Positions 1,660 through 29,312 of a stretch of 38,821 nucleotides of DNA are shown here, in pieces. Location of the stretch: contig JACPRL010000183.1 of assembly GCA_016189965.1 (NCBI GenBank), forward strand, positions 1 to 38,821. Direction: 5' to 3'. The notes beneath the pieces were generated by a model. That model ran no database searches, was not told the origin of the DNA, and saw only the letters and a list, made by a program, of their open reading frames with translations. The position numbers and the translations under genes are program-made. Position 1 is the stretch's first letter; every line of letters starts with the position of its first letter. This DNA comes from Acidobacteriota bacterium. Lineage in GTDB: Bacteria; Acidobacteriota; Terriglobia; Acidiferrales; 2-02-FULL-67-57.

Positions 1660-1720
1660 CGGCGTCGGGCGATTCTCCCTTGCGCCCCCAGCCAAGTCAA
1701 GAAAACCCGCCACCCCAAAG

Positions 1721-1760
1721 CGGAAAGGCGAAAAGGGAAAATAGAAAAGAGAAAATCGGC
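1721..1760 (-). repeat. T-rich 7-bp-periodic repeat array (reverse-orientation copy)
   Basis: The reverse complement reads gccgattttctcttttctattttcccttttcgcctttccgc. It shares the ttctattttc / ttttcgcYtttc core with the copies at 1854 and 4711. Confidence 0.7.
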
Positions 1761-1799: not shown

Positions 1800-1853
1800 A
1801 TTGTCCGGCCAGTCGTGGTATCGTGGCGGCTTCGCAAACGGGGGCTCTGCTTT

Positions 1854-1896
1854 TGCCTCTTTTCTATTTTCTGATTTCTATTTTCGCTTTTCGTCG
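1854..1896 (+). repeat. T-rich 7-bp-periodic repeat array (TTTCTAT-like units)
   Basis: gcctcttttctattttctgatttctattttcgcttttcgtcgc. About five units of TTTCKMT. Forms an inverted partner of 1721..1760 around parS. Confidence 0.7.
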
Positions 1897-1899
1897 CTG

Positions 1900-2406
1900 A
1901 TGCGGGCGTGGGTCTACAAGGTGAACGCGAAGCGCCCGGGGCGCTTCACGGGCTGGCACTTCGAGGAGTACTTCCGCTACCGCGGCCGCCAGCCCTACGA
2001 GATGGGCGGGCGGGAGTGGATTCGCAGCCCGCAGAGCTGGCGCCACCTGCGCCGCGTGCGGCGCGGCGACCTCTACATCTGCTACCAGGCCGACGAGCGG
2101 AGAATCTACGGCCTGGCGCGCGCCGCCACGAACGGCTACGAGTCGCTCCCCGGCTCCGGGATTTTCGATTCGGTGGACTTTGCCCCGCCGCTCCGGGGCG
2201 GCGCGCTGCGGCTCGCCCACCCGGTGAGTGTCGCGCACCCGGCGGCCCGCGAACTCTTCCGCCACCTGCGCGCCTTCACCGTCCCCTCGCGCGGAACGAT
2301 TCACCCGCTCGCCGCGGACGAGCTTCGCGCCCTGCTCCGTTGCCTCAGCGACTTCAACCCCGCCCAGCGCCCCGCCCTTCAGCATTTTCTCCGAAGCTCG
2401 TCTTGA
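1900..2406 (+). CDS. hypothetical protein, possible EVE/PUA-like domain with conserved C-terminal tail
   Basis: ATG at 1900 lies in frame within the long ORF 664..2406. 168 aa, MRAWVYKVNAKRPG...RRGDLYICYQADERRIYGLARA. The pattern resembles EVE/PUA-like domains. The tail RGTIHPLAADELRALLRCLSDFNPAQRPAL is re-encoded at 2935..3024. Confidence 0.6.
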   Translation: MRAWVYKVNAKRPGRFTGWHFEEYFRYRGRQPYEMGGREWIRSPQSWRHLRRVRRGDLYICYQADERRIYGLARAATNGYESLPGSGIFDSVDFAPPLRGGALRLAHPVSVAHPAARELFRHLRAFTVPSRGTIHPLAADELRALLRCLSDFNPAQRPALQHFLRSSS

Positions 2407-2410
2407 GGGC

Positions 2411-2752
2411 CTATCCGGGGGTGATGGCTTGCGCGGGCAGGGCGATGCCGAACAGGCCGGCCAGGATGCCGACGATATACCCCAGGCAGGTCAAGAAAAT
2501 CGTAAGCCAGTTGCTGACGTCCGCCTCCGGGTTCTTCAACTTGAGGTAGAACATGGCGAACATCGAGAACACAAAGGCCAGAGCCACCAAGCCGGAAAAA
2601 ATCAGCGCCACGTAGGTCTTGACCTTTTCCATCGGGGGCAGCGTGTGAACAGACGGCACGACCGTGCCGGTGACGGTCCAGGCGAGAACCAGGATGGCAG
2701 CAACCAAGGCCAATCCCACGAGCAGAAACGCGACCTTCCAGAAGGTAGTCAC
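2411..2752 (-). CDS. small integral membrane protein (about 3 TM), unknown function
   Basis: GTG at 2752 is preceded by GGGAGGA with a 6-nt spacer. 113 aa, hydrophobic (VAFLLVGLALVAAILVLAW, YVALIFSGLVALAFVFSMFAMF, LTIFLTCLGYIVGILAGLFGI). Visibly lower GC than its surroundings. Confidence 0.65.
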   Translation of the reverse strand: MTTFWKVAFLLVGLALVAAILVLAWTVTGTVVPSVHTLPPMEKVKTYVALIFSGLVALAFVFSMFAMFYLKLKNPEADVSNWLTIFLTCLGYIVGILAGLFGIALPAQAITPG

Positions 2753-2801
2753 AGCAATTCCTCCCGCTGCTAGCCGCGAGGGCGGGCTTGATGTTGGGTC
2801 G

Positions 2802-2830
2802 AGCCTACAGCGCCCGACCTGGGGTGTCAA
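2802..2830 (-). promoter_or_regulatory. sigma70-like promoter for the small membrane-protein gene
   Basis: The minus strand reads TTGACA-N17-TAGGCT, about 45 nt upstream of the GTG at 2752. Confidence 0.5.
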
Positions 2831-2934
2831 GGCGACAACCCCGTAGGCGCGCCGAGAGGATTGGAACTGGCGGTTGCATGTTTCCGCGCCCGATTCCTCG
2901 CCTCGGCGCGGTTGCGGGGGCGTTTTAGGGCGAA

Positions 2935-3049
2935 GCGCGGAACGATTCACCCGCTCGCCTCGGACGAACTCCGCGCCCTGATCGCCTGCCTGAGCGCCTT
3001 CAACCCCGCTCAGCGCCCCGCCCTCCTCGCTCTCCTCGAGGGGCCCTAG
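2935..3049 (+). pseudogene. orphan 3' fragment of a paralog of the 1900..2406 gene
   Basis: 2935..3024 matches 2289..2378 at 80/90 nt (hand count, no indels). It encodes RGTIHPLASDELRALIACLSAFNPAQRPAL followed by its own stop at 3047..3049. No matching N-terminal domain lies upstream. Confidence 0.6.
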
Positions 3050-3100
3050 GCTAGCGAACACGACTCGGCAGGAAGCAGTTGGGCAGGAGAACGGAGCGGG

Positions 3101-4147
3101 CTAGCCGCTGAAGACGTAGAAAACGAGGATGAGCATCGCAGTCCCGAACAGAACACCCAAGGCCGGAGAAGCAATCGGGCCGCCCGGCTCGAGCGTGGCC
3201 AGCTTCGGGTTGCGCGGGCAATAATGCACAGGCACAGAAGTGTTGGGCACGTACCGCGCCACCTGGCGTCGCGCCGTCTCCTCCCGCCAGACAAAGTTGC
3301 CCGTGGCAAACGAGACGGTGTCGCCCACGTAGGAGAAGCCTTCGACGCTGTAGCGATAGGTGATTTCCAGCCGGTACCGGGCCAACCCCCCGGTCTCGAC
3401 CACCTCTGAATTAACAATCGTCGCCTCGGTGGTCGGCCACTGCCGACTGGCGTACATCCGAATCAGCATCCGCAGGCCATTAAACCCCACCAGCAGACCA
3501 TAAAAGCCGAAGAACCCCACGGCGAGATACGTAGCAAAGTCCTTCCTCCGCCGTTCCTCGGACCTGGGGCTGATGGCTTCGGCGCGGGCTTCGAGCTGGC
3601 GCGCTTTCGAGCCGGGAAGAAAAGACTTGAGGGGATGTTTCTTCCGCAGCATGGCGGCATAAGTCCGCAGCGTGCCGGCTACCGCGGCGTGCTCCGGGCC
3701 GTATACTTTCTCCTCCACCTCCAGGGCCCAGCGGTAGTAAGTTTCCGCCTGGTCATACTTGCCCCAATAGGTGCAAAGGTCTGCGAGGTAATGCAGACTC
3801 GAGGCCACATCGGGATGCTCCCGCCCCCACAGCCCTTCCCGAACCGCCAAGAGCTCAAGATAAAGCGGCTCGGCCTCGGCGTAGCGTCCCCGGCGCTCGT
3901 AGAAGTAACCGAAGTGAAAGAGGGTGTGGGTCAGAAAGCGGTGGTCAGCGTCCGCGAGCTCGCGCGCCTGCGCCAGTGCCTCTTTGTAATGCTGCTCGGC
4001 CTGCGCCTCGTGCCCTTGGCGGTCGGCCTGCTCGGCGGCGCGGAGGGCTTCGGCCAAGCGACGCTCATCCGCCCCAGCTAGGCGGACAGAGACCGCCAAC
4101 AAGAGAAGTAACAGCAGCACGCGTCTGACCGGGGTTCGGCTGGCCAC
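3101..4147 (-). CDS. TPR-repeat protein with C-terminal DUF3592-like membrane domain
   Basis: GTG at 4147 follows GAGGGCGGAG. Signal or TM segment VRRVLLLLLLLAVSVRLAGA. TPR_12-like repeats (YKEALAQAREL.., AEAEPLYLELLAVRE, YDQAETYYRWALEVEEKVYG). C-terminal part has TM + WPTTEATIV...YRLEITYRYSVEGFSYVGD...VPVHYCPRNPKLATLEP + TM. Confidence 0.7.
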   Translation of the reverse strand: MASRTPVRRVLLLLLLLAVSVRLAGADERRLAEALRAAEQADRQGHEAQAEQHYKEALAQARELADADHRFLTHTLFHFGYFYERRGRYAEAEPLYLELLAVREGLWGREHPDVASSLHYLADLCTYWGKYDQAETYYRWALEVEEKVYGPEHAAVAGTLRTYAAMLRKKHPLKSFLPGSKARQLEARAEAISPRSEERRRKDFATYLAVGFFGFYGLLVGFNGLRMLIRMYASRQWPTTEATIVNSEVVETGGLARYRLEITYRYSVEGFSYVGDTVSFATGNFVWREETARRQVARYVPNTSVPVHYCPRNPKLATLEPGGPIASPALGVLFGTAMLILVFYVFSG

Positions 4148-4158
4148 GCTCCGCCCTC

Positions 4159-4413
4159 TCAGCCGCTTTCGGTTGCGACCCCAGGCCTGGTTCTCCAAAG
4201 GTAGCGGCAACCCCACACCCCACCCCAGCAAATCAGCAGGGCGAAAACAATCCAAAAGTAGTTCCACCAGGAGGCCCCGGTTTCCAACGTCGCGATATCG
4301 GGACTCTCCGGGTTGTAGTGCACGAGTACCGGCTCGCCCACGCGATAACGAGAAACAACCTGGTAGGGGCTCCCCGCAATGATGAAAGCGGCAATCCACT
4401 CGGGCGGCATCAC
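4159..4413 (-). CDS. short DUF3592-like C-terminal fragment protein (possibly truncated)
   Basis: 84 aa. YRVGEPVLVHYNPESPDIATLE followed by a TM segment mirrors the C-terminal half of the downstream gene's DUF3592 part. The N-terminal half is missing. Its stop lies 11 nt before the next start. Confidence 0.5.
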   Translation of the reverse strand: MMPPEWIAAFIIAGSPYQVVSRYRVGEPVLVHYNPESPDIATLETGASWWNYFWIVFALLICWGGVWGCRYLWRTRPGVATESG

Positions 4414-4437
4414 GCAGGGAAACCAACCTTTAATCTC

Positions 4438-4467
4438 ATCCTAAGACCGCGCTGGGGGGCAAGTCAA
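4438..4467 (-). promoter_or_regulatory. sigma70-like promoter for the DUF3592 gene pair
   Basis: The minus strand reads TTGACT-N18-TAGGAT, ending about 25 nt upstream of the ATG at 4413. Confidence 0.45.
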
Positions 4468-4530
4468 TGCGCGCAGGTTTTCTCTTTGCAAACTCTCTCA
4501 GCCCGTGCATCTGCGGTTTCACTTTGCTGG

Positions 4531-4625
4531 TAGTGGGCGTAGCCTTCGGCGAACAGCCGCGACATCGCCACTAGCGACTTCGTGCGGTCCTTGAACAACT
4601 CCGCCAGCCCCAGGAAGCGCTCCGC
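4531..4625 (-). pseudogene. duplicated 3' end of the 7038..7787 gene (orphan fragment)
   Basis: 4531..4625 matches 7039..7133 at 92/95 nt (hand count, constant offset 2508). It encodes ...ERFLGLAELFKDRTKSLVAMSRLFAEGYAH, but the stop TAA is changed to TAC. No upstream coding part is present. Confidence 0.8.
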
Positions 4626-4710
4626 GATTCAGCGTTTTCTCCGCCGCTGATCTCCGTCCTCTCTGTGCCTGCTCCCAGGGTAGTCGAAGAGTGTGCTGCA
4701 CTCATTCCGT

Positions 4711-4756
4711 GTTTCCTCTTTCCCATTTCTATTTTCTATTTTCGCTTTTCCGCTCC
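4711..4756 (+). repeat. T-rich 7-bp-periodic repeat array
   Basis: gtttcctctttcccatttctattttctattttcgcttttccgctcc. Same family as 1854..1896. A shorter relative lies at 20983..21003. Confidence 0.7.
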
Positions 4757-4784
4757 TATCTGTGCCTTCCCGCTTCCGGTTCTC

Positions 4785-4813
4785 TTGACACCCGGAGGTT
4801 CCTCCTTTAACTT
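4785..4813 (+). promoter_or_regulatory. sigma70-like promoter for the cysteine-rich protein gene
   Basis: TTGACA (4785-4790), N17, TAACTT (4808-4813). Followed by a structured leader of about 160 nt and the RBS GGGAGGAG before the ATG at 4976. Confidence 0.5.
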
Positions 4814-4975
4814 GCAGCTACCAAGCGCAAAAGTACGGTCCGACAACGCGTACTTTTCAGCCGGGGAGGTTGAGGCCCAGAGAAGGCGAGAGGCAGGACT
4901 GCTTCTCGCGCCATTCTCCCTTGTGGATGTCTCCCCGGCGCAGGGAAAACCCCTCCTACGCGATGGGAGGAGCCG

Positions 4976-6982
4976 ATGAAGCGGTATACCTTTAGTCTGC
5001 TGCTCTGTTGTCTTGTCGGGGGCGCCCTCGTCCTTGTCGCGGTATTCTCCGCCGCGGCGCAGCGGTCCTCTTGCGGCGGCGAGGGCCAGCGAGCCTGCAC
5101 GATCTCGCCGGCCGCCTACGTGGGCAGGAAACCGAGCGGTTGTCCTGCGGGGAGTTTCTTCGACCCGATTGACTCCGGCACCTGCTGATCCTGCCCGGAG
5201 GGCTACATCCGCTCCGCGGCGCACGTGAAGGCGGCCGACGCTTGCGTCCATCCCCCCTACGAGCAGTTCCGCCGCGCGACCCGCCACGGGCGCGGGACCG
5301 GGCTGCTGCGCACCGACTGCCCCCGCGGCCAGTTCTGGGACCCGAACGGCTACTGCTGGTCGTGCCCGTCCGGATTCCGCCGCACCGGCCATGGGGTCAC
5401 CGACCCACGTGCCTGCGCGCGAATGGTTCCCCCACAAGCGGGGCGCGCCACCTTGGTCAGAACTCTCGCCTGTCCCTCGGGCAGCTTCTTCGACCCGATT
5501 GACGCCGGTACCTGTTGGCACTGCCCCCAGGGCTACATCCGCTCCGCGGCGCACGTGAAGGCCCCCGACGCCTGCGTCACCACCCTGTTGGCCGGTGCCG
5601 CCGCCGAACTGGGAACCTGCCGGGAGGGCACGGTCAATATCGGCGGCACCTGCAGGAAACGTGGCGCCTGCGGCGCCCAGAGCCAGCGGCCGTGCCTGAT
5701 CGGCGAGCGGACGCCTTCCTGCAATCCGGGGGTCCGCGAGGATTTCAAAACCAACCGGTGCGTGCCGCTGCGCCCAGGCGAGACGCCGTTCACTGCCGGC
5801 CTGGCCTCCCTCGCCGACTTCTACAGCGATGGGCTGCGCGCCGCCTGCCAGCAGATGGCCGCGGGGGTGCGCATCGAATCGAGCACTGAACTCGCCGTGG
5901 GCGCCAACTGCTCCAAAGACATCCTGGCGGGCATCGCGTGCGGCTTTCTGGTTGACCAGATGGGCGGCGGCTATGCCTCCGCCGTCAGTGCCATGCTCGG
6001 TTCCGGCGCTACCGCCGTGCAGTTCCAGGCCGCCGTGGGTCGCGCCTACACCGGCAAGTGTTCCCGGTTCGCCGAGCGCCTGAGCCGCGCCCACCGCGGC
6101 GGGCGCGGCGCCGGCCTGTTCGGCACCGACTGCCCCCGCGGACAGTTCTGGGACCCGAACGGTTATTGCTACTCTTGTCCGAAGGGGTTCGAGCGGACGC
6201 TCAACCCGGTGGAGAGCAACGCGGCCTGCGTGGACAAGCTCGGCGGCGAGCTGCTCCGCGCCTCCTGCAGCGTACAAGAGGCCGTCGGTTCCATGTTCGT
6301 CTCGCCGGCTGACTGCTCGATCCAGATGCTCCAGGGCGGCCTCATCGAAGGAGCCCAACTGGATTTCGCCCGCGCTTCCCAGGAGGTCTGCATGGCCACC
6401 GGGGAGTTCATCTACACCTTCATTGACGCGGTGCAGTACGCCACTGCCCAGCCCGAGCGGAGCGCCGAAAAAATCCAGTCCAGCTTGCGCGCCCTGGTCT
6501 CCAAAGTGCAACGCTCACCAGCCTATCGGAGGACGGTGATGGGGGCGAAAGCGGCCAGCACCGCCCTGTCCGGCGCCGACCTGGTTCGCAAGTTGGAGCA
6601 GTTTCCCGCCTGCAGCCAAGCCCTTCCGAGGCCGAGAGCAGGGGCCCCAGGCACCCCGGCTCCCCCACCCCGACCTCCGGAGCGGGCCGATGTCATTACG
6701 ATCCTCAACTACATGAAGGAGCCGGTTAAGGTCTGCGGCTACCGCTCCGGCCAACACCAACCCGTAAAGTGCTTCCTCGTCCCCCCGGGCGAAAGCGCCC
6801 GGTGGGATCGCACCGGCGAGGAGTACCCCTACGATCTCACCGTCCTCACGCCGCCCCCGCCGGGTTCGCGCGTGTTCCAAGGCGGCTGGCTGTGTGGTAT
6901 CCGCGACAGGCGCGAGCCACGCCTGGGGATCCATCCTTCGGAATCCGGAGGTGCCGCGCGCTGCCAGATCAAGCCGCAGTAA
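4976..6982 (+). CDS. secreted cysteine-rich repeat protein, interrupted by an in-frame TGA at 5186..5188 (possible pseudogene or recoding)
   Basis: ORFs 4976..5188 and 5225..6982 are in the same frame. Signal peptide MKRYTFSLLLCCLVGGALVLVAVFSAAAQ. Four copies of the module CPxGxF[FW]DPxxGxC[WY]xCPxG[YF]. The TGA replaces the Trp codon seen in the paralogous module at 5516-5518. Confidence 0.7.
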
Positions 6983-7037
6983 GCGGGACGATGGCCGGTG
7001 CCCGTTTCGGCGCGCGATTTTCCCACGTCTGCCCGGC

Positions 7038-7787
7038 TTAGTGGGCGTAGCCTTCAGCGAACAGCCGCGACATCGCCACTAGCGACTTCGTGCGGTCCTT
7101 GAACAGTTCCGCCAGCCCCAGGAAGCGCTCCGCCAGTCTCCGCTCCAGCCTCTCCCGGCAGAACACCACCAGCACCACAATCTGCCCGCCCGTGTAGGCC
7201 CCGCCGGTGCCGAAGACGCTCTTCACCTTGTAGGCGGAAACAAAATCCTGCGCCGCGATGATCTTCCGCCCCTGGTGGTCGGTCGCCTCCGCCGCGTCCT
7301 CGACGAAGAACAATCCTGCCGCCCGCCCCATCGTCCGCTCAATGATGTCGGAGTCCTGGCTGTCCACCCACCCCAGCGGCACCCCCAGCTCCTTCAGCAG
7401 CCGGGCAATCATCGGGATCGTATCCACGAACGCCGACGACACCAGCGGAATCCCCATGTGCTCCTTCGAGCGCCGCCGATCGTTCCACTCCGCTTCCTCG
7501 CCGTGCGTGCCCAGCAGCGAGAGCACCGGCGTCGTCGCTTTCAACTCCCCCGCCACCCCGGCCGACTCTGCCAGCCGCCGCACGAACTGCTCCACGGTCC
7601 CCAGCAGTGCCAGATAGGGAACGGTGAGGAAGACGCGCGCCAGCACCACCGACTCGGCAAACTCGGTGTGCACCGCTGCCGCCAGCGCCTGTGCTGCCTC
7701 CTCCATCGCCCTGGCTTTTTGCACCTGTGGCTCGACGCGCGCCCACAGCTTCATCAGCGTGTCGGGAGTGGCGTCCCCGATCTTCAT
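7038..7787 (-). CDS. hypothetical protein (possibly GAF-like fold)
   Basis: ORF trimmed to MKIGDATPDTLMKLW at 7787 with RBS GAGGGGGAAG. 249 aa. No diagnostic motif recognised. The VKSVFGTGGAYTGGQIVVLVVFCRE segment is reminiscent of GAF-type domains. Confidence 0.6.
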   Translation of the reverse strand: MKIGDATPDTLMKLWARVEPQVQKARAMEEAAQALAAAVHTEFAESVVLARVFLTVPYLALLGTVEQFVRRLAESAGVAGELKATTPVLSLLGTHGEEAEWNDRRRSKEHMGIPLVSSAFVDTIPMIARLLKELGVPLGWVDSQDSDIIERTMGRAAGLFFVEDAAEATDHQGRKIIAAQDFVSAYKVKSVFGTGGAYTGGQIVVLVVFCRERLERRLAERFLGLAELFKDRTKSLVAMSRLFAEGYAH

Positions 7788-7862
7788 CGGCTTCCCCCTC
7801 GCCGTCCGGGTGCCGCGAGTCTCGAGTCGCTCTGAGGCTGCGCTGCGTGAGGTGATGCCCGG

Positions 7863-7891
7863 ATTCTCCCCCCGCGCCCCCACCCTGTCAA
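7863..7891 (-). promoter_or_regulatory. sigma70-like promoter for the 7038..7787 gene
   Basis: The minus strand reads TTGACA-N17-GAGAAT, about 75 nt upstream of the ATG at 7787. Confidence 0.45.
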
Positions 7892-7940
7892 CACCAACGG
7901 GTCGCGGGTCACGAACCACGAGTCACGCTCTTATCCGCGT

Positions 7941-7992
7941 CTATCTGTGCCTGCCCGCCGTAGCCTTGGCGAAGGCGGGTGCATCTGTGGTT
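7941..7992 (+). repeat. CTGTG-family repeat copy split by a GC hairpin
   Basis: ctatctgtgc + hairpin cccgcc-gta-gcc-tt-ggc-gaa-ggcggg (7954..7979) + tgcatctgtggtt (7980..7992). The last part equals positions 18-30 of the 30-mer at 9658. Confidence 0.7.
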
Positions 7993-8014
7993 TCAATCAG
8001 TTAGAATCGCCGCC

Positions 8015-9187
8015 ATGCTCCGCTTCCACACCGCCGGCGAGTCGCACGGCCAATGCCTCACCGCACTCGTTTCCGGCCTCCCCCTCGGCGTCCCGGTCGA
8101 CCTCGTTTTCATCAACCGCGAACTCCGCCGCCGCCAGGCCGGCTACGGTCGCAGCACGCGGATGAAGCTCGAGCATGACCAAGTTGCCATCCTCTCTGGC
8201 GTCCGGCACGGGCAGACCATCGGCTCGCCCGTCACGCTTCAAATCGAAAACAAAGACTGGGCCAACTGGGAAGACACCCTGCCGGTCGAAGACAAGCCCG
8301 TCCCGCCGGAAAAGCAGCGCCCGCTCACCCAGCCCCGCCCCGGCCACGCCGACCTCGCCGGCGCGCTGAAGTTCAACCTCCACGACGCGCGCTACATCCT
8401 CGAGCGCGCCAGCGCGCGGGAAACCGCTGCCCGCGTCGCCGCCGGCGCCCTGGCCAAGCCCTTCCTCCGCGCCTTCGGCATCGAAGTCCTGAGCCACACG
8501 GTCGCCATCGGCGCCGTCCGCCTCGAGCGCGCAGCAGCCTGGGAGGAAATTGTCGGCGCCTGCCAGGACCCCGACGCTGAAATCCGCTGCGTCGATGCTG
8601 CCCGGGGCGCGGAGATGAAAAAGTTGATTGACCGCGCCATCGCTGACCGCGACTCTCTCGGCGGCGTCTTCGAAGTCGTCGCTCACAACGTCCCGCCCGG
8701 CCTCGGCTCTCACACCCACTGGGACGAGCGGCTCGACGCCCGCCTCGCTCAGGCCCTGATGTCCATCCCGGCGGTCAAAGCGGTCGAAATCGGCTCCGGC
8801 ATCTCGAACGCCTTCGCCTTCGGCTCCCAGGTGCACGACGAAATCCTCTACGACCCCGCCCGCCGCCGCTTCACCCGCCCCTCGAACCACGCCGGCGGCC
8901 TCGAAGGTGGAATGACCAACGCCGAAGACCTCGTCCTCCGCGGCTACCTCAAACCCATCTCCACCCTCCGCCGCCCCCTGCGCTCGGTTGACCTCGTCAC
9001 CAAAGAGCCGGTCAAGGCCGCCTATGAGCGTTCCGACGTCTGCGTCGTCCCCGCCGCCGGCGTCATCGGCGAAGCCATGGCCGCGCTAGAGCTCGCCGCC
9101 GCCTTCCGCGAAAAATTCGGTGGCGACACGCTCGAGGTAGCCCGCCGCATCTTCTCCGCCTACCTCACCCAACTCCAAAACTTTTGA
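8015..9187 (+). CDS. aroC: chorismate synthase
   Basis: MLRFHTAGESHGQCL... carries the chorismate synthase signature (GESHG). 390 aa. ORF 7979..9187 trimmed to the Met at 8015. Confidence 0.95.
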   Translation: MLRFHTAGESHGQCLTALVSGLPLGVPVDLVFINRELRRRQAGYGRSTRMKLEHDQVAILSGVRHGQTIGSPVTLQIENKDWANWEDTLPVEDKPVPPEKQRPLTQPRPGHADLAGALKFNLHDARYILERASARETAARVAAGALAKPFLRAFGIEVLSHTVAIGAVRLERAAAWEEIVGACQDPDAEIRCVDAARGAEMKKLIDRAIADRDSLGGVFEVVAHNVPPGLGSHTHWDERLDARLAQALMSIPAVKAVEIGSGISNAFAFGSQVHDEILYDPARRRFTRPSNHAGGLEGGMTNAEDLVLRGYLKPISTLRRPLRSVDLVTKEPVKAAYERSDVCVVPAAGVIGEAMAALELAAAFREKFGGDTLEVARRIFSAYLTQLQNF

Positions 9188-9217
9188 AACCACAGATACA
9201 CACAGATGCACACAGAT
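9188..9217 (-). repeat. CTGTG-family 30-mer, inverted copy (left arm of the GxxExxY cassette)
   Basis: AACCACAGATACACACAGATGCACACAGAT matches the reverse complement of 9658..9687 at 28/30 (hand count). Confidence 0.85.
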
Positions 9218-9595
9218 AAGGCAGAGCCGGATTACCCGGAGGCAGAGCTCACCGAGAAGATTCTTGCCGCCGCTTTCAAAGTGCAGAATGTCTTGGGTTG
9301 CGGCTTCTTGGAAAAAGTCGACGAGAACGCATTGGTCGTCGAACTGAGCCGGCAGCAGCTACGCACCCAGCAGCAGAAGCCTCTGCAGGTGAGATACGAA
9401 GGCGCGATTGTTGGCGAGTATACGGCTGACCTCGTGGTTGAGGATCGCGTGATCGTCGAGTGCAAAGCCGTCACGCAACTCGACCCCGTCCATGAAGCTC
9501 AACTGCTAAACTACCTGAAGGCAACGGGCATCCGTGTCGGCTTGCTGCTGAACTTCGGCCGTCCGAAGCTCCAGTACCGCCGCTTTGTAGCTTAG
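9206..9595 (+). CDS. GxxExxY protein (PD-(D/E)xK nuclease-fold family, PDDEXK_3-like)
   Basis: 129 aa. Contains GAIVGEYTADLVVEDRVIVECKA (GxxExxY followed by a D..E.K-type core) and LLNYLKATGIRVGLLLNF, as typical for the family. Confidence 0.85.
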   Translation: MHTDKAEPDYPEAELTEKILAAAFKVQNVLGCGFLEKVDENALVVELSRQQLRTQQQKPLQVRYEGAIVGEYTADLVVEDRVIVECKAVTQLDPVHEAQLLNYLKATGIRVGLLLNFGRPKLQYRRFVA

Positions 9596-9657
9596 GGCGA
9601 TATGCGCTTGCTGTTGGGGGCTCGTGCGTCGGACCCAGATGATTGGAGTCTGTCAAA

Positions 9658-9687
9658 ATCTGTGTGTATCTGTGTGCATCTGTGGTT
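9658..9687 (+). repeat. CTGTG-family 30-mer (three 10-bp units)
   Basis: ATCTGTGTGT ATCTGTGTGC ATCTGTGGTT. Identical 30/30 to 24443..24472. Ends 3 nt before the def ATG. Confidence 0.9.
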
Positions 9688-9690
9688 CCA

Positions 9691-10200
9691 ATGATTTATC
9701 CGATTGTTAAATACGGGGCGTCGGTGCTGGAACACAAGGCGGCGCCGGTGACCGCCTTCGACGCCAAGCTCGCCCGGCTCGTCGAAGACATGTTCGAGTC
9801 CATGTACGCCGCCCACGGCGTCGGCCTCGCCGCCCCCCAGATCGGTATCCCGCTTCAGCTCGCCGTCATTGACACGACCAGCGGCGCTGACCCCGCTGCC
9901 CGCCTCGTCCTCGCCAACCCGGAAATCCTCGCCACCGAAGGCAAGCAGAACGAAGAGGAAGGCTGCCTGAGCCTCCCCGGCTTCCACGCCGTCATCCGCC
10001 GCCCCGCCCGCGTCACCGTCCGCGCCCAGAATGTCTCCGGCAAGCCGTTCACCCGCACCGGCGAAGCCCTCCTCGCCCGCGCCTTCTGCCACGAGATTGA
10101 CCACCTCCACGGCCGCCTCTTCCTCGCGCATCTCTCCGCGCTGAAGCGCGACCTCATCCGCCGCAAAATCCGCAAACTCATCAAAGCCGGCGACTGGTGA
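9691..10200 (+). CDS. def: peptide deformylase
   Basis: Contains the GVGLAAPQIG, EGCLSLPG and HEIDHLHG motifs. 169 aa from the Met at 9691. Confidence 0.95.
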   Translation: MIYPIVKYGASVLEHKAAPVTAFDAKLARLVEDMFESMYAAHGVGLAAPQIGIPLQLAVIDTTSGADPAARLVLANPEILATEGKQNEEEGCLSLPGFHAVIRRPARVTVRAQNVSGKPFTRTGEALLARAFCHEIDHLHGRLFLAHLSALKRDLIRRKIRKLIKAGDW

Positions 10201-11353: not shown

Positions 11354-11380
11354 TTGATTGATATCAATCAACATCAATCA
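11354..11380. promoter_or_regulatory. palindromic operator (probable antitoxin binding site)
   Basis: TTGATTGATATCAATCAA is a perfect 18-bp palindrome (11354..11371). An extra half-site ATCAATCA follows (11373..11380). It sits immediately after the -10 element. Confidence 0.6.
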
Positions 11381-11389
11381 GGAAGGACC

Positions 11390-11689
11390 ATGGTCAATCG
11401 CATCCCCCTTACGAAAGCCCGGGTCAACCTCGGGCAACTGGTGCGCCGCGTTCATGTCAACAAGGAGTACTTCATTCTGGAAAAGGACGGCATTCCAGTC
11501 GCCGGCCTGATGGACGCGGAAGAACTGGAGGACTACCTCGAGGTGCGCAACCCGAGCGTCCGAGAACACATCCGGGCCAGCCACGACGAGTATCTGGCCG
11601 GCAAGGCGCGCCCGGCGGAGGCTTTGCTGACCCGGACCAGGAAAAACAAGCGGCGTCGCTCCAGGGCTCGGCGACCTCGAAAGGCATGA
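11390..11689 (+). CDS. type II antitoxin, Phd/YefM family
   Basis: RBS AGGAAGGA. MVNRIPLTKARVNLGQLVRRV...YFILEKDGIPVAGLM. 4-nt ATGA overlap with the downstream toxin. Unusual Arg/Lys-rich C-terminal tail. Confidence 0.8.
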   Translation: MVNRIPLTKARVNLGQLVRRVHVNKEYFILEKDGIPVAGLMDAEELEDYLEVRNPSVREHIRASHDEYLAGKARPAEALLTRTRKNKRRRSRARRPRKA

Positions 11690-11976
11690 CGCTGCTTTTT
11701 CGCGTCCTGGCCACACCCCATTTTGACCACCTCTTCCGAAAACTCGGCAAACACCACCCAGATCTTCAAGGCATCTTCCGGGATGCACTCAGCACCCTGC
11801 AGACCGACCCGCACAACCGGACTCGCCGGCACGCTATCAAGAAACTCGAAGGGCTCAAGCCCGGCGAAGGGCAGTACCGGCTCCGCCTCGGGCGCTGGCG
11901 CTTTCGCTATGATATCGCCGGCCAGGACGTAGTTCTCCACTACTGCGGACTGCGCCGGGAAGAAACCTATCGCTAG
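11686..11976 (+). CDS. type II toxin, RelE/ParE family
   Basis: 96 aa. YRLRLGRWRFRYDIAGQDVVLHYCGLRREETY is the typical RelE/ParE C-terminal core. Translationally coupled to the antitoxin. Confidence 0.8.
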   Translation: MTLLFRVLATPHFDHLFRKLGKHHPDLQGIFRDALSTLQTDPHNRTRRHAIKKLEGLKPGEGQYRLRLGRWRFRYDIAGQDVVLHYCGLRREETYR

Positions 11977-11991
11977 GAGTTGGAGTAGTCC

Positions 11992-12780
11992 TTGATGCTC
12001 TTCGGTGCCGCCATCGCTTTGCTGCTCGGAGGGTTGGCCGTCTACGCCTTCCTCATCGAGCCCTATTGGCTCCACGCCACCTACCACCGCCTACCGGCCC
12101 CCGTCCGCGCGCCGCTGAAAATTGCCCTGCTCAGCGACCTGCACACGCTCGGCCTCGGCCGCCGCGAACGCAAACTCCTCCGCCTGCTCGAAGCCGAACA
12201 GCCCGACGCCATCCTCATCGCCGGCGACTCCCGTTCCACCTCCCGGCGCGCCACCTACGAATCCATCCGCGAGACGCTCTCCCACCTGCGCGCCCCGCTC
12301 GGCGTCTGGCTCGTGCGCGGTAACCACGACAAGGACGCCCGCCGCCTCGCCCAGGCGCTCGACGGCCTCGAAAGCGACGGCATCCACCTCCTCCTCAACC
12401 AGGGCTGCGCCCTGCGGCCCGACGTCTGGCTCGCCGGCCTTGACGACGTCCGCGGCGGCCGCCCCGACCCCGACCTCGCTCTCCGCGACGCCCCCGCCGG
12501 CGCCTGCCGCATCGCTCTCTTCCATTGCCCGGTAGGATTCGAGCCGCTCGCCGGCCGCGTCGAACTCGCTCTCGCCGCTCACACCCACGGCGGCCAGGTG
12601 CACCTGCCCTTCATCCGTCCCTTCTGGCTCCCGCGCGGCTGCGGCTCCTACCTCGAAGGTTGGTATGAGAAGAACGGCACGCCGATGTACGTCACCCGCG
12701 GCCTCGGCACCTCCGGCCTGGCGCTGCGCTTCCGCTGCCGCCCCGAAGTCGCTTTCCTCCTCCTCGAACCCTCCCACTGA
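11992..12780 (+). CDS. metallophosphoesterase (membrane-anchored, YkuE-like)
   Basis: N-terminal TM segment, then the LSDLHT, GDS, RGNHD and HTHGGQ motifs. Confidence 0.85.
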   Translation: MMLFGAAIALLLGGLAVYAFLIEPYWLHATYHRLPAPVRAPLKIALLSDLHTLGLGRRERKLLRLLEAEQPDAILIAGDSRSTSRRATYESIRETLSHLRAPLGVWLVRGNHDKDARRLAQALDGLESDGIHLLLNQGCALRPDVWLAGLDDVRGGRPDPDLALRDAPAGACRIALFHCPVGFEPLAGRVELALAAHTHGGQVHLPFIRPFWLPRGCGSYLEGWYEKNGTPMYVTRGLGTSGLALRFRCRPEVAFLLLEPSH

Positions 12781-23380: not shown

Positions 23381-23486
23381 GCGCGCGACGCCGACGGGTC
23401 CCGACCAAAGCGCTGATGAACATTGAATTTGAAGACTGATGGAGTCTCGACGGGTCAACCCTCTCGCCATGCTTGCCCTGAGCGTA

Positions 23487-23510
23487 GTGTATCTGTGTGC
23501 ATCTGTGGTT
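23487..23510 (+). repeat. CTGTG-family repeat copy (positions 7-30 of the 30-mer)
   Basis: gtgtatctgtgtgcatctgtggtt, 24/24 identical to the corresponding part of 9658..9687. Ends 15 nt before the coaX ATG. Confidence 0.85.
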
Positions 23511-23525
23511 TCATAAATAGCCTCT

Positions 23526-24378: not shown

Positions 24379-24472
24379 GTCATTCCGCCTTTCTTTGTCA
24401 TTCTGAGCCCCGAAGCTTCGGGGCGAAGAATCCCATCGAGAAATCTGTGTGTATCTGTGTGCATCTGTGGTT
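24379..24472 (+). repeat. composite intergenic element: GTCATTCTGAGC hairpin module + CTGTG 30-mer
   Basis: gtcattctgagccccgaagcttcggggcgaagaatcc contains the 18-nt palindrome 24407..24424 with an extended stem. It is followed by the 30-mer at 24443..24472. Confidence 0.8.
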
Positions 24473-24509
24473 ACATATCTTCCTACTCGGCTGTGCGGGG
24501 GCAGTTCCC

Positions 24510-26633: not shown

Positions 26634-29312
26634 ATGCGCTTTCCTGTGTTCTGGCTGGCCGCCGTGTTCGCAGCCGGGCTCGCCGCTTTTGCTGACGTGG
26701 ACGATCCCCCGCGTGTCCTGTTTGCGCTGGCGCTGGCGGCGCTGTTGCTGGGGACGCTTTGCCTGGGGCGTCGCTGGCTGACGACGGCGCTCGCCTGCGC
26801 GCTGGTCGGCTTTTTTCTTTTCGGCGGCGCCACCATCAGTCTGCGCGCGGCCTCGATCGCCGCCACCCGCGTCGACCGCGTCATTGCCCGCGAACCACTC
26901 GACCTGAGCGAAGCTGTCCGCCTGACCGGCTGGCTGCGCCGAAGCCCGGAGCAGAAACCGTTCGCCGTCTTCTACGACCTCGAACTCGAAAACCTCGAAA
27001 CCGGCGGCCAGCGCTATGACGCTTCCGGCGGCGTCCGCCTGAGTTACTTCCTTCCCTCCGACCGAGAAGAACCTCGCCCCTCCCTTCCTGCTTTGCGCTA
27101 CGGCGACCGCGTCGAAGTCCTCACTCGCGTCCATGCCCCCGTCAACCGGCAGAACCTCGGCAGCTTCGACTGGCGCGCGCACCTAGCCCGGCAGAGAATT
27201 TTTCTCGAAGGCTCGCTGAAAAGCCCCGAGCTGCTCACCAAACTTCCCGGGCCGCGCGGCAACCGCTTCTCCCGCTGGATTCAAACTCTCCGCACCCGCC
27301 TGCTGGCACAGCTCGACTCCCTGTTTCCGCCGGACACGCGAGGCGACGAGAACGCCGTCCTGCGGGCCATGCTGCTCGGCGACAGCGGCTTCCTCTCCCA
27401 TCGCCTGGCGGAGGATTTTCGCACCAGCGGCACCTACCACGTTCTGGTTGTCTCCGGGCTGCACGTCGGCGTCATCGCCGTGTTCGTCTTCTGGCTGCTG
27501 CGGCGCTTGCGCGCGTCCGAGGAGGTCGGCGCCGTCATTACCCTAGCGGCGCTGGTCTTCTACCTGTTCCTGGTCGAGGACCGGCCACCCATCGAGCGCG
27601 CCGTCTGGGCCGCGGGCGTCTACCTGACGGCGCGGCTGCTCTTCCGCCAGGTGCACCTCGGCAATACCACTGCGGTGGCGGCGCTGCTGGTGCTGTTCCT
27701 TCACCCGGAATGGATCCTCGACCCGAGCTTTCATCTCTCCTTCGCTGCAGTCTTCCTGATTGCTTTTCTCGCCCTGCCCTGGATCGAGCGCACCACGCAG
27801 CCCTACCGCGACTCGCTCTGGTTTCTCGACACTCCCGAGCGCGCCGAGCAACTGCGTGAGCCCCGCCTAGTGCAGTTCCGGCTCGACCTGCGCGCCCTGG
27901 CCGAGCTGCTGGCCCCCCTGGCCTTCTGGGCCGAAGAAAAAGAGCGCGCCGTGCTGCGCCTCCTCGCTTGGGTCGTCCGCGTCGGACTCCGCGCCCTGGA
28001 CTTCTTTCTGATTTCGCTGGCCATTCACCTCGGCTTCGTGCTGCTGACCGCTTTGTATTTTCAGCGCGTCGTCTGGCTGGGCCTGGCAGCGAACATCCTG
28101 GTGGTGCCCCTGGTGGGCTTCATCGTGCCGCTGGGCCTGGCCACGCTGCTTGTGGCTTTGCTGTGGTTGGCCGGCGGAATGCTGCTGGCTGAGCTAGTCC
28201 GCTTGCTGGTGGGTTTGCTTCTGGTGATTGTTGAGTCAGTGGCGGGACGTCTTACATGGGGGATTCCGCCCCCGCCGGCATGGCTGGTGGTGCTCTACCT
28301 CGGCGGGCTGGCGCTGCTAGCTGTGGCGGCGGTGCGCCAGCAGCGTCAACGCTGGGCGTTCGCGGGACTGGTGGCGTTGATTCTTGTCGTCGTTGCCCAT
28401 CCGTTTCCCCCGCGCCTGCCGGAGAACGTGCTCGAAGCCACCGTGCTCGACGTCGGCCAAGGCGACTCGGTATTCCTCACTTTTCCCAACGGAGAGACTT
28501 GGCTGGTGGACGGCGGCCGCGGCCCCGTGGAGATTGGGCGCGGCTATTGGGTTGGCGAGGATATCGGAAGAACGGTCGTCGTCCCCTATCTGCGCGCCCG
28601 GGGAATCAAGCGCCTCGACCGTGTCTGGCTCACCCATGCCCACCACGACCACATGGCCGGCCTCGGCGAAGTTCTCGACCAGTTTCCGGTGGGCAGCTTC
28701 GAGGTTGGCCCCGCGCCCGCCAGCTCCGCCTATGAGAAATTGCTCCAGCATGTCCGCGAGCGCGGCATTCGGCTCCGGCAACATAGAGCGGGAGAGCGTT
28801 TCACGCTGGCGGGCGTCGAGATCGAGATTCTCTGGCCGCCTCCGACCTATCAGCCGGGTCGCGCCCCCTCGAACAACGATTCGCTGGTGCTGCGGTTGTG
28901 TCGGGCAAATACCTGCGTGCTGCTACCCGGCGATATCGAAACAGACGTGGAGAAGACCCTTGCCATGCAGCAACCCGCCTTGCAGGCCGCCGCGCTCAAA
29001 GTGCCGCACCACGGCGGCCGCGGCGCTGCCACGACGGAGTTCCTAGCAGCAGTCGGGCCCCGCGCCGCCATAATTTCCGTCGGCGCCACCAATCCCTTCG
29101 GACACCCCTTTGAAGAGGTGACCGAGCGGCTGGCGGCGCAGGCCGAGCGGGTCTATCGCACCGACCGCGACGGCAGCGTCACGGTGCGCGTCGAAGAACA
29201 CGGGCTCGCGGCGGAGAGTTTTCGGGAGCAGCAGCGCAGCGAACTCTACCCGAGTCTCTGGGCCAAGCTGGGCGCTTGCGCCCGGCAGCTCCTCTTACTA
29301 GAATCCGACTGA
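26634..29312 (+). CDS. comEC: DNA internalization-related competence protein ComEC/Rec2
   Basis: 892 aa. Polytopic competence domain (GTYHVLVVSGLHVG) plus a C-terminal metallo-beta-lactamase domain (THAHHDHMAGL). Confidence 0.92.
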   Translation: MRFPVFWLAAVFAAGLAAFADVDDPPRVLFALALAALLLGTLCLGRRWLTTALACALVGFFLFGGATISLRAASIAATRVDRVIAREPLDLSEAVRLTGWLRRSPEQKPFAVFYDLELENLETGGQRYDASGGVRLSYFLPSDREEPRPSLPALRYGDRVEVLTRVHAPVNRQNLGSFDWRAHLARQRIFLEGSLKSPELLTKLPGPRGNRFSRWIQTLRTRLLAQLDSLFPPDTRGDENAVLRAMLLGDSGFLSHRLAEDFRTSGTYHVLVVSGLHVGVIAVFVFWLLRRLRASEEVGAVITLAALVFYLFLVEDRPPIERAVWAAGVYLTARLLFRQVHLGNTTAVAALLVLFLHPEWILDPSFHLSFAAVFLIAFLALPWIERTTQPYRDSLWFLDTPERAEQLREPRLVQFRLDLRALAELLAPLAFWAEEKERAVLRLLAWVVRVGLRALDFFLISLAIHLGFVLLTALYFQRVVWLGLAANILVVPLVGFIVPLGLATLLVALLWLAGGMLLAELVRLLVGLLLVIVESVAGRLTWGIPPPPAWLVVLYLGGLALLAVAAVRQQRQRWAFAGLVALILVVVAHPFPPRLPENVLEATVLDVGQGDSVFLTFPNGETWLVDGGRGPVEIGRGYWVGEDIGRTVVVPYLRARGIKRLDRVWLTHAHHDHMAGLGEVLDQFPVGSFEVGPAPASSAYEKLLQHVRERGIRLRQHRAGERFTLAGVEIEILWPPPTYQPGRAPSNNDSLVLRLCRANTCVLLPGDIETDVEKTLAMQQPALQAAALKVPHHGGRGAATTEFLAAVGPRAAIISVGATNPFGHPFEEVTERLAAQAERVYRTDRDGSVTVRVEEHGLAAESFREQQRSELYPSLWAKLGACARQLLLLESD

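Follow-up and report, generated by a model that had tools for sequence, protein, structure and literature searches.

The window analysed here is a stretch of 38,821 nucleotides (nt) from an Acidobacteriota bacterium (assembly GCA_016189965.1, contig JACPRL010000183.1, positions 1 to 38,821 of the forward strand). Between a conserved gene that we call G2 and aroC it contains an interval of 5.6 kb (2407-8014) that is a hypervariable hotspot, in which two small segments of DNA are each bracketed by the intact 3' end of a gene on one side and an orphaned copy of that end on the other. We hold, at about even confidence, that both segments are scars of additive recombination at a gene-swapping hotspot, for which no new kind of mobile element is needed.

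The larger segment adjoins a gene that we call G1. A sequence-only reading of this DNA had described a direct repeat around it, and blastn confirms that the repeat, DR1, is real: 4531-4625 and 7039-7133 are identical at 92 of 95 positions at a constant offset of 2508 (E = 3.6e-39), in exact blocks of 17, 49, and 26 nt. A repeat search gives a longer match of 95 in 100 (4531-4630 versus 7039-7138), and there is no third copy in the window. The features of this pair are the following:

7038 to 7787, minus strand: G1, 249 amino acids (aa), a member of a widespread family without a Pfam match, with a GAF-like predicted fold; an accessory gene of the islet
7039 to 7138, minus strand: the copy of DR1 attached to G1, consisting of its last 31 codons and the 'TA' of its stop codon
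4531 to 4630, minus strand: the orphan copy of DR1 (orphan1), which encodes the identical 31 residues with three synonymous changes, has TAC in place of the stop codon TAA, and lacks the upstream gene body
4976 to 6982, plus strand: cargo 1, a gene of 668 codons for a secreted Cys-rich repeat protein, with an in-frame TGA at 5186-5188

The right-hand copy is thus the genuine 3' end of G1 and the left-hand copy an orphan, as the sequence-only reading had it; orphan1 has no gene body, because a TGA stands two codons upstream of the start of homology. The edges of DR1 are sharp, and gapped local alignment of the flanks finds no similarity past them on either side. All three differences are synonymous in the G1 frame (G/A, A/G, and C/T on the plus strand), when about 26% of random changes in DR1 would be synonymous (P = 0.019 if all are neutral, and about 0.07 in a mixed model that puts half of them on the selected copy).

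A second, independent pair of the same design (a gene 3' end, one small gene, then an orphan) lies 2 kb to the left of the DR1 structure and was overlooked in the earlier picture of a single repeat. In this pair, DR2, the 3' end of G2 (2289-2378) is repeated at 2935-3024 with 80 of 90 positions identical (89%). Its features are:

1900 to 2406, plus strand: G2, a conserved backbone gene of 168 aa, a few of whose homologues match the EVE domain; the copy of DR2 attached to G2 is its 3' end (2289-2378)
2411 to 2752, minus strand: cargo 2, a small gene for a predicted membrane protein of 113 aa, with a GTG start and GGAGG upstream
2935 to 3049, plus strand: orphan2, made up of the DR2 copy at 2935-3024, an eight-codon, family-like tail of its own, and a stop codon; TAGGCTAG follows, as it does in the related locus L066

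Only the last 28 nt of G2, the membrane gene, and 182 nt of upstream DNA (2753-2934) lie between the two copies of DR2. The two copies differ at nine codons, synonymously at five of them; the reading frame of orphan2 runs on without interruption to a stop of its own, one codon before that of G2, and both C-terminal tails (ALQHFLRSSS and ALLALLEGP) fit the pattern of the G2 family. Given that the changes in DR1 are all synonymous and that both G2 tails fit the family C-terminus, the orphans look, at the level of sequence, like the 3' ends of diverged alleles and not like decayed in-place duplicates. The TAGGCTAG motif after the stop of orphan2 is identical to that in L066, where it overlaps the -10 box of aroC, and close to that in other relatives, and it is missing from the present end of G2. 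Because orphan2 keeps this ancestral motif and the present G2 end does not, orphan2 appears to be the displaced resident end of G2.

Both pairs belong to an interval whose content changes from relative to relative, and two further features are needed to describe it:

2407 to 8014, no strand assigned: the variable islet, flanked by the conserved genes G2 and aroC (ATG at 8015), with different content in relatives and empty in L066
3101 to 4426, minus strand: a TPR and DUF3592 gene between the two inward-pointing orphans, with a promoter-like site at 4467-4438

From left to right the locus reads G2 (rightward), the membrane gene, orphan2 (rightward), the TPR/DUF3592 gene (leftward), orphan1 (leftward), the Cys-rich gene, and G1 (leftward), so that the orphans point inward. 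The backbone mlaF-mlaE/G2 ... aroC-def-fmt is common to the window and the related loci L053/L054, L056/L057, L065, and L066, at ~71-79% nt identity. Between G2 and aroC, L066 is empty, with the G2 stop 15-18 nt from the aroC start; L053/L054 have two unrelated open reading frames (ORFs), L056 has PMSR-ABM-STAS genes, L065 has PMSR-ABM-STAS and YndJ, and L067 has yet another ORF. There are thus five different contents among the relatives between conserved flanks (mlaFE-G2 and aroC-def-fmt), and the islet has no mobility genes. These syntenic relatives were reached through homologues of G2, with which a metagenome scan yielded only seven loci, mostly short. None of the window's islet genes occurs at the G2-aroC position in any syntenic relative examined, and therefore G1, the supposed neighbour gene, is itself accessory here. 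The sequence-only reading was right that the bracketed DNA is accessory; it had taken G1 as the neighbouring gene and overlooked that G1 itself lies inside the hypervariable interval. The empty site that it proposed (G1 followed by 4505-4518 and 4438-4467) was not found in the databases searched, which hold no genome above 71-77% protein identity.

Under additive recombination, the 2.5-kb segment would be one of two layers added to the G2-aroC islet. Incoming DNA from a related lineage would have brought that lineage's downstream gene and, with it, an allele of the resident gene, which is G1 for the right-hand segment and G2 for the left-hand one. It would have been attached by one homologous exchange, within the gene that both DNAs had in common, and by one non-homologous joint, which would lie between 4630 and 4631 for the Cys-rich segment and between 2934 and 2935 for the membrane segment. 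The route may have been a Campbell-type single crossover of a circularised fragment, or homology-facilitated illegitimate recombination with the illegitimate joint just inside the resident gene; we infer the route, as we infer which allele was resident. Either route would leave an intact gene, then the cargo, then a displaced terminal piece (~100-115 nt) of the other allele. A dedicated integrase would be unnecessary, and the 49-nt exact block would still permit RecA-mediated loss of the segment.

Several observations agree with such a history. Homology ends abruptly at all four repeat edges, the divergence is coding-like (synonymous or conservative), and the tails are native-like. In conjugation experiments, a single crossover of circular DNA carrying part of a gene end produced duplications of that end of 109-950 bp (PMC3240628). 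Other points weigh against it. Classical homology-facilitated illegitimate recombination usually deletes recipient DNA and does not duplicate it (PMC3240628), so a circular intermediate or an unusually placed joint would be needed, and twice. At 100 and 115 nt both remnants are short (P ~0.03 if junctions fall uniformly along genes of 750 and 507 nt), a hint that the mechanism may favour a certain length or the ends of genes. Orphan2 is less family-like than the G2 end (mean family identity 0.50 versus 0.57), so part of its divergence would be decay after displacement. A donor or recipient haplotype (G1-TPR without the Cys-rich gene, or G1-Cys without the orphan) was not found among the databases searched, which contain only distant relatives: the closest homologues are 71% identical for G1, 77% for G2, and 68-69% for the Cys-rich protein.

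The search for mobility machinery was negative throughout. As the sequence-only reading had noted for integrases, Pfam scans of the likely genes of the window (38.8 kb) gave no match to an integrase, excisionase, transposase, or phage gene. No reverse transcriptase was found in the window, and neither ARAGORN nor Rfam gave a tRNA or any other hit there. Scans of viral contigs with the repeat, G1, and the Cys-rich protein gave no match, PADLOC returned nothing for the islet proteins, and no toxin or immunity genes were detected among them. An orphan G1 or G2 3' end is present in none of 68 related loci, and the direct repeats of 50-300 nt in ~921 kb of related loci are all intergenic, paralogous, or like miniature inverted-repeat transposable elements (MITEs), with no gene-3'-end orphan among them. 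The insert ends carry no terminal inverted repeats. We rejected a diversity-generating retroelement, since a reverse transcriptase is lacking and the mismatches are synonymous and not adenine-specific. We likewise set aside a transposon with target-site duplication: there is neither a transposase nor a terminal inverted repeat, and the repeats are 90-100 nt long and allele-like. The window does encode ComEC (26634-29312), which is compatible with DNA uptake and no proof of it.

These results divide the earlier proposal of site-specific integration into a gene end. Its geometry stands, for circular or one-sided integration into a gene 3' end yields just this order of intact end, cargo, and displaced end; its site-specific mechanism finds no support, with no integrase, transposase, or tRNA in the window, no viral relatives, and no orphan 3' end either at G1 homologues in 46 other genomic loci or at the homologues of the Cys-rich gene. 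An integrase-mediated event of the kind known from e14 and phage 21 at icd would give the same picture if the attachment site of one element mimicked the last ~100 nt of G1, and that of another the end of G2, so that a replacement terminus was supplied and the original displaced; the integrase would since have been lost by internal deletion, or the element would be a satellite mobilised in trans. Direct repeats of the target 3' end do stand at both borders, their lengths are alike (95-100 and 90 nt), the copies diverge synonymously or conservatively as icd and icdC do around e14 (PMC13626634), and DR1 homology stops at the stop codon, which is expected if only the coding end needs restoring. 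We nonetheless consider this explanation unlikely, both for the missing recombinase and phage genes, in the segments and in the window at large, and for the small size of the cargos (~2.4 kb and ~0.56 kb, one gene apiece). The two targets have no evident common core sequence, the target does not recur (no orphan G1 or G2 end in the 68 related loci), homologues of the Cys-rich gene sit in unrelated contexts without flanking repeats, and the viral contig scans showed no relatives. We think it somewhat more doubtful again that the central piece (2935-4630, with orphan2, the TPR/DUF3592 gene, and orphan1) is the newcomer, a 1.7-kb G2'-TPR-G1' fragment of a sister haplotype that two illegitimate joins would have placed in the intergenic region from which the small membrane gene and the Cys-rich gene diverge. 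A single event would then cover both orphans and their inward symmetry; the TPR gene is a compositional outlier, with a GC content at third codon positions (GC3) of 0.73 versus 0.83-0.93 in mlaF, mlaE, G2, the small membrane gene, the Cys-rich gene, G1, def, and fmt; and the piece is closely flanked on both sides by the 7-nt sequence GCGTTTT, although the probability that this 7-mer is there by coincidence is ~2-3%. With homologous ends in this orientation a fragment would, however, be expected to replace the interior and not to insert, the divergence of the orphans is unequal for one donor (3% for DR1 versus 11% for DR2), and neither kind of haplotype was found. Insertion of the central TPR piece as a single circle is rejected, the gene order that it predicts not being the observed one.

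Duplication in place (by a long target-site duplication, a replication template switch, or a tandem duplication with deletion), followed by neutral decay of the orphan, would account for direct repeats with sharp edges around an insert, for the lost stop codon of orphan1, and for the changes in orphan2 at some conserved positions. Copying of 90 nt would leave one DR2 tail made of unrelated cargo DNA, and for that reason this explanation is disfavoured: both tails resemble native family C-termini and end where expected. The three-for-three synonymous differences in DR1 and the lack of terminal inverted repeats and of a transposase also speak against it, and we give it a slim chance. The duplication-mediated capture mentioned in the sequence-only reading, if meant as duplication in place, shares this standing, both orphans resembling the ends of different alleles. 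A slightly slimmer chance falls to an undescribed class of integrase-less 'homology-handle' cassettes, single-gene modules that would carry ~100 nt of the 3' end of a host gene for insertion downstream of it; if they existed, they would explain why both repeats are ~90-100 nt long and stand at gene ends. Least probable, and very improbable in our view, is a metagenome assembly artefact, whether two coexisting strains were joined into a chimera or a repeat was wrongly resolved. The window does behave as a single metagenomic contig without a duplicate in the databases; the divergence of the copies (3% and 11%) excludes collapsed repeats, a misjoin in the assembly graph would fall within a shared k-mer and leave one copy instead of two around unique DNA, and the novel junctions (2934 to 2935 and 4630 to 4631) have no shared sequence.

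Several known systems resemble parts of this locus. Around e14 and phage 21 at icd of E. coli there is likewise an intact gene terminus, an insert, and a displaced C-terminal fragment (the icdC pseudogene) with mainly synonymous or conservative differences (PMC13626634); unlike the inserts of 0.56 and 2.4 kb here, with no recombinase found in the window, e14 is a prophage remnant of ~15 kb that has its own site-specific integrase and undergoes SOS-induced excision. Campbell single crossovers and homology-facilitated illegitimate recombination share the linkage of foreign DNA to homology, with one homologous exchange and one non-homologous joint (PMC3240628), but the substrates of the laboratory events are known, whereas those here are putative. 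In Rhs, contact-dependent inhibition (CDI), and type VI secretion system (T6SS) effector-immunity loci, successive modules displace the earlier 3' end and orphaned 3' fragments lie beside retained genes (PMC5361080). The displaced ends there encode different toxin domains with immunity genes, a functional variation, while the displaced G1 end encodes an identical peptide and the displaced G2 end a slightly different one. Minimal mobile elements and replacement-type flexible islets (in Neisseria and others) also have varying whole genes in a fixed interval and no mobility genes of their own (for the concept see PMC3082526 and PMC1538595); there, exchange by homologous recombination in the flanks swaps the content without duplicating any gene ends, and the two orphans here would mark additive events as well. 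On the favoured reading the locus adds one more case to a known kind of recombination scar, here within a small islet of hypervariable content. It is a clean natural case, with two replicates, of how a small islet flanked by conserved genes may grow as incoming DNA contributes a gene and the resident tail is moved aside, and it suggests that additive recombination, besides flank-to-flank replacement, shapes hotspots in this uncultured lineage. For annotation it means that an integrative element should not be called on the sole ground that two copies of a gene end flank an insert. The locus would be more interesting if a dedicated mechanism lay behind the similarity of the repeat lengths, and none of the results calls for one.

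G1 belongs to a widespread family of proteins of ~245 aa without a Pfam model, sometimes given the JGI label 'histone H3/H4', which is a mislabel. Its AlphaFold model is confident (predicted local distance difference test, pLDDT, 90.9), and the structures most similar to the model are GAF domains, from phytochromes and response regulators, at TM-scores of about 0.45-0.6; the duplicated part corresponds to the last helix and the tail. Searches of PDB sequences with G1 and G2 gave no match. A promoter-like site of G1 is at 7891-7863. Elsewhere the family occurs widely in unrelated contexts, and the homologue nearest to G1 (P0002) is not syntenic. A genome scan with G1 gave 48 loci, none of them syntenic and none with an orphan 3' end; exact-protein look-up with the window's G1 and Cys-rich proteins retrieved no other contigs. 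In a metagenome-assembled genome (MAG) of Marinacidobacterales, a G1 homologue is split by an insert of ~670 bp (L050, 9010-10318). Short repeats of this insert recur in that locus, and it is probably a MITE or insertion sequence (IS) insertion.

For the TPR/DUF3592 protein, NCBIfam gives weak, sub-threshold TPR matches only.

The DNA next to the Cys-rich gene includes two more features:

4631 to 4975, plus strand: the upstream region of cargo 1, with a T-rich heptad repeat (4712-4754), an ATCTGTG-type motif (4750-4773), TTGACA-N17-TAACTT (4785-4813), and a structured 160-nt leader
6983 to 7037, no strand assigned: a spacer of 55 nt between the convergent stop codons of the Cys-rich gene and G1

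The left edge of this segment, between 4630 and 4631, is a sharp non-homologous junction. The segment had been credited with a single secreted Cys-rich gene, and the product does have a signal peptide followed by Cys-rich repeats; an intact frame it does not have, for codon 71 is TGA (5186-5188), where all six aligned homologues have Trp in a CWSCP motif. TGA is an ordinary stop in this genome, terminating mlaF, mlaE, aroC, def, and fmt, and we therefore rejected its reading as Trp or as selenocysteine, for which there is also no hit to a selenocysteine insertion sequence (SECIS). Since TGA is the normal stop elsewhere in the window, the Cys-rich gene is either a recent pseudogene or the TGA contains a sequencing error. 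The three closest of its homologues, at 68-69% aa identity, are those that stand in unrelated contexts without flanking repeats.

The promoter and the T-rich repeat that the sequence-only reading placed in the segment held up in part. The motif TTGACA (4785-4790), a 17-nt spacer, and TAACTT (4808-4813) can be read by eye, and the promoter scan does not list it, its -10 box being too weak. The T-rich repeat is present and not private to the segment, with copies at 1719-1754 (minus strand) and 1853-1892 (plus strand), upstream of mlaE and G2. This TATTTTC-like heptad repeat precedes the -35 boxes of the mlaE and Cys-rich gene promoters and directly precedes G2; it resembles an UP element, in a genome of 65% GC. 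The 160-nt leader of the Cys-rich gene (4810-4980) is unusually stable (-70.9 kcal/mol, z = -2.84 versus shuffles) and contains a perfect 9-bp stem (4829-4837 with 4849-4857).

Another repeat lies close to orphan1:

4505 to 4521, plus strand: a solo arm of the GTGCATCTGYGGTTTCA repeat, 9 nt beyond orphan1

The degenerate CTGTG repeat noted after orphan1 is one of a dispersed intergenic family. GTGCATCTGYGGTTTCA, with its 'CTGTG' motifs, has six occurrences versus 0.1 expected. Solo arms are at 4505-4521, 7961-7995, 23479-23513, and 24441-24475, and one is also found in a related MAG (L056, 12628-12662). The arms mostly lie within ~35 nt upstream of plus-strand starts (aroC, def, coaX, and another ORF), and the repeat may be promoter-associated.

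Downstream of the hotspot, the backbone is interrupted in the window by another islet (11354-12780) with a Phd/YefM antitoxin, a 96-aa ORF, and a metallophosphoesterase between fmt and rpe; fmt adjoins rpe in L056, and L065 and L066 have other genes between the two. Between aroC and def, where relatives have nothing, the window carries a GxxExxY/PD-(D/E)XK_3 gene (9206-9595, in the stretch 9184-9691), enclosed by inverted arms (9184-9217 and 9656-9691) of an ATCTGTG repeat with a 10-nt period. A homologue in L026 (6283-6660) is bracketed by direct repeats of 78 nt that are themselves hairpins, and the gene looks like a repeat-associated selfish or mobile gene.

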